The translations under genes were made by a program, and so were the position numbers. From Acidobacteriota bacterium (GTDB lineage: Archaea; Nanobdellota; Nanobdellia; Woesearchaeales; DATGWN01): DNA of 60,314 nt. The stretch lies in NCBI GenBank assembly GCA_035299465.1, contig DATGWN010000029.1:1-60314 (forward strand). Reading direction: 5' to 3'. Below, piece by piece: positions 49,071-49,886 of the stretch. Positions within the stretch are counted from its first letter, which is position 1. Every line of letters begins with the position of its first letter. The notes beneath the pieces are model-generated. The model was not told the DNA's origin and made no database searches. It saw only the letters and a list, made by a program, of their open reading frames with translations.

Positions 49071-49343
49071 TCAACTATCGCTAAAAGAGTTGCAGCAGAT
49101 GCGCTGGTCCTTCTTGCCGTCAGTATAACACGCTGCGTTTATTTTAGTGCCGCGGATACCATCAACGTATGGGCATGTCCCACCTGAAGCCACAGTCTCG
49201 CACTTGCCGCCGCGCTGTTCACAACCAAGATCTTGTCTAAATGCGCCAAGCGAATTGATAGCAATAAATGCAATAACAGCAACCAAAATGATAACAAGAA
49301 TTGCTTTGCCAACTGTTCCAAATGCTTCTTGGGCTTTTGCCAT
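49071..49343 (-). CDS. small six-Cys pilin-like protein, array gene 3
   Basis: MAKA|QEAFGTVGKAILVII; C-x6-C-x8-C-x14-C-x10-CC. Confidence 0.82.
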   Translation of the reverse strand: MAKAQEAFGTVGKAILVIILVAVIAFIAINSLGAFRQDLGCEQRGGKCETVASGGTCPYVDGIRGTKINAACYTDGKKDQRICCNSFSDS

Positions 49344-49344
49344 G

Positions 49345-49620
49345 TTAACCTAGTCGAGTGCAACAGTATGCCTGCTGTCCGCCACCAATGCAATTTTTAG
49401 CGATAGCAACGTATGTATATCCGTCACCTATCTGTGCACATTGATCCTTGGACTGCACACAATAGTTGGAGTCGCATCTATCGATTTCTTTACTGACACC
49501 GCCTGTGCCACGCAATACGATAAAAGAAAGAATGACTAAAATCAAAAGAGCAATGACTGCCATGACAATGACATTCATGGAAAGACCGTCACCGCGTTTG
49601 TTAAAGAGCTTCATACGCAA
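49345..49620 (-). CDS. small six-Cys pilin-like protein, array gene 2
   Basis: FNKRG|DGLSMNVIVMAVIALLIL; C-x4-C-x6-C-x15-C-x8-CC. Confidence 0.85.
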   Translation of the reverse strand: MRMKLFNKRGDGLSMNVIVMAVIALLILVILSFIVLRGTGGVSKEIDRCDSNYCVQSKDQCAQIGDGYTYVAIAKNCIGGGQQAYCCTRLG

Positions 49621-49886
49621 CAGTATGCACCAGTGTCCTGGTTATCAGCGTCAACACACTTCCAAGTTTGCTGTGTAGTTGTTCGACCATCTAATCGTTC
49701 GCTGCAAAGTTCGAATGAACAGACACCACCTTTATTTTGGCATTGAAGAATACCGACATTTGTCTTTCTCATATTATTGACAACCATTGTTGCCAAAACG
49801 ATTAGGATTAGAAGCGCTATTACGGCCATGACGATTGTACTCATGGATAAATCCGCTTTTTTACCAATTTTGTCTCTCATACGCAT
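49611..49886 (-). CDS. small six-Cys pilin-like protein, array gene 1
   Basis: SD GAGGT; GKKA|DLSMSTIVMAVIALLIL; C-x6-C-x4-C-x15-C-x11-CC. Confidence 0.85.
   Translation of the reverse strand: MRMRDKIGKKADLSMSTIVMAVIALLILIVLATMVVNNMRKTNVGILQCQNKGGVCSFELCSERLDGRTTTQQTWKCVDADNQDTGAYCCV

Follow-up and report, generated by a model that had tools for sequence, protein, structure and literature searches.

A family of archaeal pilin-like proteins with a six-cysteine head resembling animal beta-defensins

Archaeal type IV pilins and other proteins with class III signal peptides (PF04021, Class_IIIsignal; PF07790, Pilin_N) are substrates of A24 peptidases. They open with a short, basic leader that closes with K/R-G/A, frequently as KKGQ, continue into a hydrophobic helix of about 20 residues and usually end in a beta-sheet or immunoglobulin-like head. 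Short major pilins with minimal heads (for instance the PilA-N type of Geobacter and the short major pilin of Methanococcus) are, like the present proteins, very small, consist mostly of the N-terminal helix and lack a disulfide-knotted head. Vertebrate beta-defensins (PF00711 and PF13841; human beta-defensin 1, hBD-1, structures 1IJV and 2NLB) share the six-cysteine pattern C-x6-C-x3/4-C-x9/10-C-x5/6-CC, frequently with GG-x ahead of the second cysteine, and a hydrophobic residue after the CC doublet. Their fold has three antiparallel strands linked by the disulfides Cys1-Cys5, Cys2-Cys4 and Cys3-Cys6. They are cationic and are released after a Sec signal. The tick carboxypeptidase inhibitor (TCI; PF10468, Inhibitor_I68; 1ZLH, 2K2Z), an animal salivary protease inhibitor, is made of two repeats of the beta-defensin fold (PMC6339383). 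Trans-defensins have been described as exclusive to animals (PMC7203481), and cis-defensins have been reported from bacteria (PMC11561630). Here we describe three adjacent genes, A, B and C, of a Woesearchaeota-like DPANN archaeon of the small symbiont type, located in a 60,314-nucleotide stretch (the window) of contig DATGWN010000029.1 (assembly GCA_035299465.1). They encode pilin-like proteins carrying a type of head not previously described in prokaryotes; in full-text searches of the literature we found no report of cysteine-rich pilins in DPANN archaea or Woesearchaeota, nor of a beta-defensin fold in archaea. According to our preferred reading, to which we assign a probability of about 0.55, they are mini-pilins with class III leaders and a disulfide-locked, beta-defensin-like, hypervariable and mostly acidic head, which would serve in attachment, recognition or antigenic variation and not in membrane attack.

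The positions and component parts of the three proteins are listed in Table 1. The original prediction, made from the letters of the DNA, held that each gene encodes a leader, a single transmembrane helix and a head of about 45 residues with six cysteines ending in a CC pair, and translation bore this out. The spacings given for the three heads, the CxxxGGxC motif with which the heads of A and C open and the segment LSM(S/N)(T/V)IVMAVIALLIL common to A and B were all correct. Each protein contains exactly six cysteines, all of them within the last ~45 residues. The junctions between leader and helix (marked here by a slash) read GKKA/DLSM in A, NKRG/DGLSM in B and MAKA/QEAF in C, and are followed by a hydrophobic run of about 21 residues. 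The translation of gene A reads MRMRDKIGKKADLSMSTIVMAVIALLILIVLATMVVNNMRKTNVGILQ-C-QNKGGV-C-SFEL-C-x15-C-x11-CC-V. Its start was placed at the ATG at 49886, an in-frame TTG further upstream, at 49907, being a less likely start. Cysteine makes up 13% of the heads as against 1.44% of the open reading frames (ORFs) of at least 150 aa in this genome. Because of this enrichment, and because of the conservation in homologues described below, the six-cysteine pattern of A, B and C is far beyond chance. The three genes are the only credible family members within the 1.21-Mb genome.

The family was delineated by an exhaustive phmmer search with gene B against 1.84 billion cluster representatives (50% identity clusters) at E≤1e-3. 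At least 273 family clusters were matched, nearly all of 80-100 aa. A word-indexed search with A retrieved orthologues at 47-55% identity with six cysteines in every one, and exactly six were counted in 145 of 156 homologue sequences. Four cysteines are invariant and the two others at least 90% conserved in the full-length alignment (n=147), where a CC doublet with a short tail ends all 147 members, one of them only once its extra C-terminal cysteine is counted. When the heads were aligned alone, the six cysteine columns were invariant and no other column was. Mean pairwise identity amounts to 43% in the N-terminal part versus 15% in the head (cysteine columns excluded). Pfam and NCBIfam hold no model for the family, and A, B, C and their neighbours in the array gave no match above threshold in either database. 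A, B and C are real genes of an unannotated family.

As the original prediction had proposed, a hidden Markov model (HMM) of the head was built, from 128 heads deprived of the helix, and run across DPANN genomes. This model alone found matches in 38 of 61 relatives, spread over 37 of the 59 genera sampled from the same order; when sampling was extended to the phylum, 48 of 151 genomes matched, 47 of which belong to that order. Gene C matches the model with E=4e-9, but is itself part of the seed alignment. A pattern scan with a narrower alignment, using one genome per species, yielded 66 wider loci, nearly all labelled as metagenome-assembled genomes of Woesearchaeota, Nanoarchaeota or Nanobdellota. 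Judged by these sequence matches, the family hardly extends beyond one DPANN order (Woesearchaeota-type). Tandem arrays of two to six mini-pilin genes are usual in the 66 loci. The gene order A-B-C is orthologously conserved in two other contigs (L011 and L014), the match of gene C to the third gene being weak there; the three genes are therefore old paralogues and not the outcome of a recent duplication burst. Many records with the family (L016-L018, L024, L025 and others) are titled 'uncultured Methanosarcinales archaeon' in third-party annotation assemblies, a label that was probably put in provisionally or is taxonomically wrong.

The N-terminal part of the family has prepilin-like features. 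The leader follows the consensus M-x-KKGQGLSMNVIIIAAIALLVLVIL, and the motif [KR]x?[GAS]xx[LIMVAP][STPAG] fits 124 of the 147 members, with a leader of about 5 residues and a hydrophobic run of median length 21. We take this leader to be the archaeal class III signal pattern of PibD/EppA/FlaK substrates. The leader region of the family profile also aligns weakly with the prepilin leader of bacterial PilA (9laa_A, E=0.045). AlphaFold modelled full-length B as a lollipop, with a helix at residues 13-45 (33 residues) and a small head (predicted local distance difference test score, pLDDT, 77.5). The family is thus like archaeal type IV pilins in its short basic leader, its helix, its predicted shape and its clustering with other leader-bearing genes, and also in the presence of an A24 peptidase and of T2SSE/T2SSF machines in the genome. 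The latter encodes one A24 peptidase (contig C33), five T2SSE ATPases and eight T2SSF matches. The T2SSF platforms adjoin T2SSE ATPases, and pilins of the PF04021 type lie beside the machines on contigs C25, C7 and C47. No recognised pilin of this type was found beside the T2SSE-T2SSF pairs on contigs C65 and C90, whose ATPases have weak T2SSF-like neighbours of 572 and 754 aa, respectively; for that reason these two machines are possible candidates for assembling the orphan pilin-like array.

Several observations weigh against an assembly of A, B and C into pili. PF04021 and PF07790 do not match the three proteins (hmmscan, E≤1), and a search of the whole genome with both models at E≤10 returned other loci only. 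Within 6 kb of the array, assembly genes are absent both here and from all of the 66 wider loci, and none of the A24 peptidase, T2SSE and T2SSF genes is inside the window. Moreover, surface proteins that form no filament carry class III leaders as well. The family might accordingly consist of surface proteins that never build an extended pilus and display, from a membrane anchor or a short pseudopilus-like structure, a disulfide-locked knob for ligand binding, in a manner comparable to the components of the Sulfolobus bindosome. Besides the absence of pilin matches and of adjacent assembly genes, this would agree with the very mixed sizes of the products of the surrounding cluster (42 to ~750 aa), which bear similar leaders throughout. 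However, the subunits are very short and present in tandem copies, and their most conserved part is the N-terminal helix, the pattern expected of a filament core. The full-length model is that of a pilin-like lollipop, and the genome holds the two ATPase-platform pairs without a recognised pilin. We therefore consider pure display proteins unlikely and the assembly of A, B and C into filaments, on balance, somewhat probable. The proteins are best called pilin-like, cleavage of the leader and filament assembly being predicted from sequence. They differ from the usual archaeal pilins in carrying a putative six-cysteine knot of about 45 residues as a head, in being missed by the curated models and in lying away from the assembly genes.

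We next consider the head itself. The head HMM was searched against 177,635 distinct PDB sequences at E≤10. It produced 13 matches, and all 13 are proteins of the beta-defensin fold. The best ones were the C-terminal domain of TCI (2k2z_A, E=0.0023) and the full protein (1zlh_B, E=0.012), followed by platypus defensin-like peptide 1 (DLP-1, 1b8w, E=0.074) and by hBD-1 and its mutants (E=0.8-1.6). The profile alignment brings the six cysteines, the GG-x-C before the second cysteine and the CC-[IV] end into line, and hhalign gave a probability of 79.5% for TCI and 51% for hBD-1. The head of A alone was then predicted by AlphaFold with the family alignment (pLDDT 77.4, core 80-88; predicted template modelling score 0.54) and compared with the whole PDB using Foldseek. 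In this check, which the original prediction had suggested, ranks 1 to 8 were all beta-defensins (seven entries of hBD-1 and mouse BD-8). The best match had E=0.29, a probability of 0.90, a template modelling score of 0.67 normalised by target and a root-mean-square deviation of 2.5 Å over all 36 defensin residues. From rank 9 onward the structures were unrelated, with probabilities of at most 0.07. Sequence identity in the top matches (23-26%) is about the level given by six aligned cysteines plus the GG. The evidence from the profile and that from the fold both rest on the cysteine framework, and are therefore not mutually independent.

In a head-only Pfam scan of the family members taken singly, the most frequent matches were to defensin-type models. 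Defensin_beta (PF00711) was matched by 5 members (best 0.0046), Inhibitor_I68 by 4 and AtDEF-like by 3; one member matched Defensin_beta_2 (PF13841) at 7e-05, a value not set against the cut-off, and the other head-only matches were below threshold. None of these matches came from the heads of A, B and C, and the three proteins matched neither PF00711 nor PF13841. The likeness to TCI extends over C-x2-KGG-x-C, the six cysteines and the terminal CC-V. Like the archaeal heads, TCI is neither cationic nor an antimicrobial peptide, and it shows the fold in use as a scaffold for binding in general. It differs from these heads in its two tandem domains, its shorter loops and the lack of a membrane helix, and there is no sign that the heads are carboxypeptidase inhibitors.

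The resemblance has its limits. The beta-defensin cysteine pattern claimed at the outset holds for the order of the cysteines and the terminal CC, both common to all members, and for loops 1 and 2, but not for loops 3 and 4, which measure 14-15 and 8-11 residues in the heads of A, B and C as against 9-10 and 5-6 in beta-defensins. No more than 13 of 147 members have loop lengths inside the range set here as classical for defensins. The model of full-length B found no PDB match with Foldseek (best E 6.5), and AlphaFold may be reproducing a memorised fold from the cysteine pattern. Taken together, the idea of defensin-like filament subunits is partly supported.

The six cysteines could also be engaged in another connectivity or fold, or coordinate a metal in these largely anaerobic organisms, the likeness to defensins being a coincidence of spacing. 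We judge this rather improbable, and a little more so than the display of a knob by proteins that form no pilus. The PDB set includes thousands of other cysteine-rich peptides, yet every profile match has the beta-defensin fold, and beta-defensins also top the structure search. Neither CxxC nor His-containing metal-site motifs occur in the family heads, and the CC doublet is invariant. Two further points, the natural variants of the head and the presence of VKOR genes, are relevant here.

Four-cysteine variants were found within the same arrays in two lineages (Table 1). Counted from the start of the hydrophobic run, their first cysteine is at 33-34 residues; in the six-cysteine family Cys1 is at 31-37 and Cys2 at 36-44. 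Their second cysteine is followed by xxGxxxVP at a distance typical of Cys3, and stands 23-30 residues before the CC doublet (normally ~24 from Cys3 to Cys5). In three of the four variants a tyrosine occupies the position of Cys4 (VPxxC). Anchored on these flanks, the sequences are suggestive of variants that kept Cys1, Cys3, Cys5 and Cys6 and lost Cys2 and Cys4 together. Such a joint loss would fit a Cys2-Cys4 bond, as in the pairing stated for beta-defensins (PMC7203481). The HMM alignment alone, on the other hand, places the first cysteine of these variants at Cys2 and is ambiguous as to the pair that was lost. Eight-cysteine variants were also observed, with the pattern C-x6-CC-x2-C-x3-C-x15/18-C-x5-CC; their heads likely carry a predicted fourth disulfide. 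Variants of both kinds can serve as natural experiments and help to infer which cysteines pair.

The VKOR homologue of the window overlaps by 4 nt the gene of an AhpC/TSA (Bcp-type) peroxiredoxin (39115-39594, minus strand), and a second VKOR copy is present on contig C18 of the same genome. With two such genes, an oxidising pathway is available in this organism, and VKOR is a candidate oxidant for its extracytoplasmic disulfides. The enzyme was also considered as a dedicated oxidase of the family and rejected in this role, since no association was found across the 61 relatives. VKOR is present in 21 of them; 13 have both the family and VKOR, 25 the family only, 8 VKOR only and 15 neither.

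The membrane activity of defensins depends on their cationic character. The net charge from Cys1 to Cys6 is -2 in A, -1 in B and +2 in C; over the family it averages -3.2, with 88% of the heads negative and 1% having a charge of at least +2. The heads do not qualify as cationic antimicrobial peptides, and an interaction with membranes, entertained in the original prediction, is unlikely because they are mostly acidic. It is very improbable that A, B and C encode bacteriocin- or toxin-like precursors from which a defensin-like peptide is secreted by means of a cleavable N-terminal signal and acts on competitors or on a host membrane: their layout of a signal followed by a cysteine-rich peptide does bring sub-threshold matches to PF25052 in 27 of the 147 full-length members (plant defensin-like; best 1.6e-06, A and C 0.005), the head resembles peptides of the beta-defensin fold and bacterial cis-defensins are known (PMC11561630), but the PF25052 matches nearly vanish in the head-only scan (3 members, best 0.048), the hydrophobic run is of transmembrane length, directly follows [KR][KR][GA] and has no AxA-type site behind it, the heads are acidic, and the same type of leader is found in 11 of the 12 genes of the run.

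The proteins thus fit neither of the two families to which they were compared. The curated pilin models do not match them; on the defensin side, scores remain below the thresholds and both the charge and the type of precursor differ, the acidic heads being fused to a pilin helix. We infer from sequence that the leader is cleaved and the subunits assemble into filaments, as well as how the cysteines pair and what the proteins do, and the preferred reading of mini-pilins with a defensin-like head would work as follows. The single A24 prepilin peptidase of the genome would remove the short basic leader after [KR][KR][GA]. The N-terminal helix of about 30 residues would first anchor the protein in the membrane, and would then be packed at the centre of a thin filament or pseudopilus. 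One of the five T2SSE/T2SSF machines, whose genes are located in other parts of the genome, would carry out the assembly. The three-disulfide head, with its predicted beta-defensin-like (trans-defensin) topology, would be the sole exposed part. Its invariant cysteine scaffold would carry hypervariable, mostly acidic loops, the knot providing a minimal and very stable outer surface. Variable loops, combined with two to six tandem paralogues, might diversify the surfaces available for binding or exposed as antigens, which would help in attaching to a host or substrate or in escaping viruses.

A stronger version of this proposal is that the heads are genuine trans-defensin folds with 1-5/2-4/3-6 disulfides on the surface of an archaeal type IV filament, the first outside animals, and form an order-wide hypervariable recognition scaffold for episymbiont-host contact or virus evasion. 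We put it forward tentatively, its chances being somewhat short of even. The resemblance between the heads and animal beta-defensins is most likely convergent, and homology between the archaeal and animal modules has only a very slight probability. If the proposal holds, evolution has produced or put to use a minimal scaffold of three disulfides outside animal immunity and in a different role, as the head of a surface filament. The family genes are abundant, order-wide and wholly unannotated, and on the cell surface their heads are probably what is exposed most. For these reasons they are prime candidates for attaching to hosts or for virus recognition in DPANN archaea that it has not yet been possible to grow alone. 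Since the heads are small enough for synthesis and structure solution, the claim is directly testable.

Table 1. Location of the array, of its neighbours and of the other features discussed. Positions without a locus or contig label refer to the window; a slash in a leader marks its junction with the following residues.
Feature	Position	Strand	Description	Basis
Gene A	49611-49886	minus	91 aa, mini-pilin-like; leader MRMRDKIGKKA/D, helix LSMSTIVMAVIALLILIVLATMVV, head C-x6-C-x4-C-x15-C-x11-CC-V	translation
Gene B	49345-49614	minus	89 aa, mini-pilin-like; alternative start TTG 49620; leader MKLFNKRG/DG, helix LSMNVIVMAVIALLILVILSFIVL, head C-x4-C-x6-C-x15-C-x8-CC-TRLG	translation
Gene C	49071-49343	minus	90 aa, mini-pilin-like, N-terminus divergent; leader MAKA/QEAFGTVGK, helix AILVIILVAVIAFIAI, head C-x6-C-x8-C-x14-C-x10-CC-NSFSDS	translation
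Intergenic stretch upstream of A	49887-50039	minus	A/T-rich TTTTTATATTAAAAA (TATA-box-like) ~45 nt before ATG; AGAGGT directly before ATG	
Rest of array	43078-49053	minus	nine consecutive genes: 44, 411, 49, 285, 191, 280, 152, 161, ~300 aa	
Micro-ORFs	48919-49053; 47541-47690	minus	44 and 49 aa: KRA or KKA leader, helix, short tail only	
Last array gene	43078-44169	minus	longest ORF 363 aa from a GTG; 137-nt overlap with preceding gene	
HerA/DUF87-type ATPase	50040-52034	minus	664 aa, HAS barrel, DUF87, HerA_C	Pfam DUF87 1.3e-29
VKOR homologue	38615-39118	minus		Pfam VKOR 3.5e-15, above cut-off
T2SSE ATPase genes without nearby PF04021-type pilin	contig C65 3826-5507; contig C90 11060-13234			
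Four-cysteine head variants	L055 5723-6007; L061 8890-9150, 9135-9404; L064 9153-9422		same arrays, two lineages; C-x8/12-C-x23/30-CC	
Further head-variant loci	L022 5992-6276; L024 1993-2295; L028 5974-6282			
Comparable 42-49-aa leader + helix ORFs	L015 6948-7076; L048 8138-8266; L056 4881-5030; L060 6292-6420			

The TATA-like box and the AGAGGT upstream of A (Table 1) suggest that the array probably has a predicted promoter and ribosome-binding site of its own. The gene directly upstream of the array encodes a HerA/DUF87-type ATPase with a C-terminal extension of about 200 residues, matched by the NCBIfam HerA models far below their cut-offs. Such an ATPase adjoins the array in three close metagenomic relatives (L011, L012 and L014) and in none of the 66 wider loci; it was therefore rejected as a general part of the system, and its position probably reflects a lineage-specific synteny, the ATPase forming a separate transcription unit.

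Downstream, A, B and C are continued by nine further genes into a run of twelve. All but one of these nine start with a leader of the KKA, KRG or KKG type and a hydrophobic helix, the exception in the run being the 152-aa gene J. None of the nine has a match in Pfam or NCBIfam. The same architecture as in positions 43078-49907 of the window recurs in other Woesearchaeota, where the mini-pilins are embedded among about ten further genes, most of them with the same type of leader. These clusters include micro-proteins of 42-49 aa, pairs of cysteine-containing proteins of ~260-290 aa and proteins of 600-750 aa. In the window, each of the two micro-ORFs lies directly upstream of a large cysteine-containing paralogue (411 and 285 aa). 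In the last gene of the array, a class-III-type leader, GKKG/DFFSVLFIIF, is found about 60 residues into the longest ORF. The true start is therefore probably internal, giving a predicted protein of about 300 aa.

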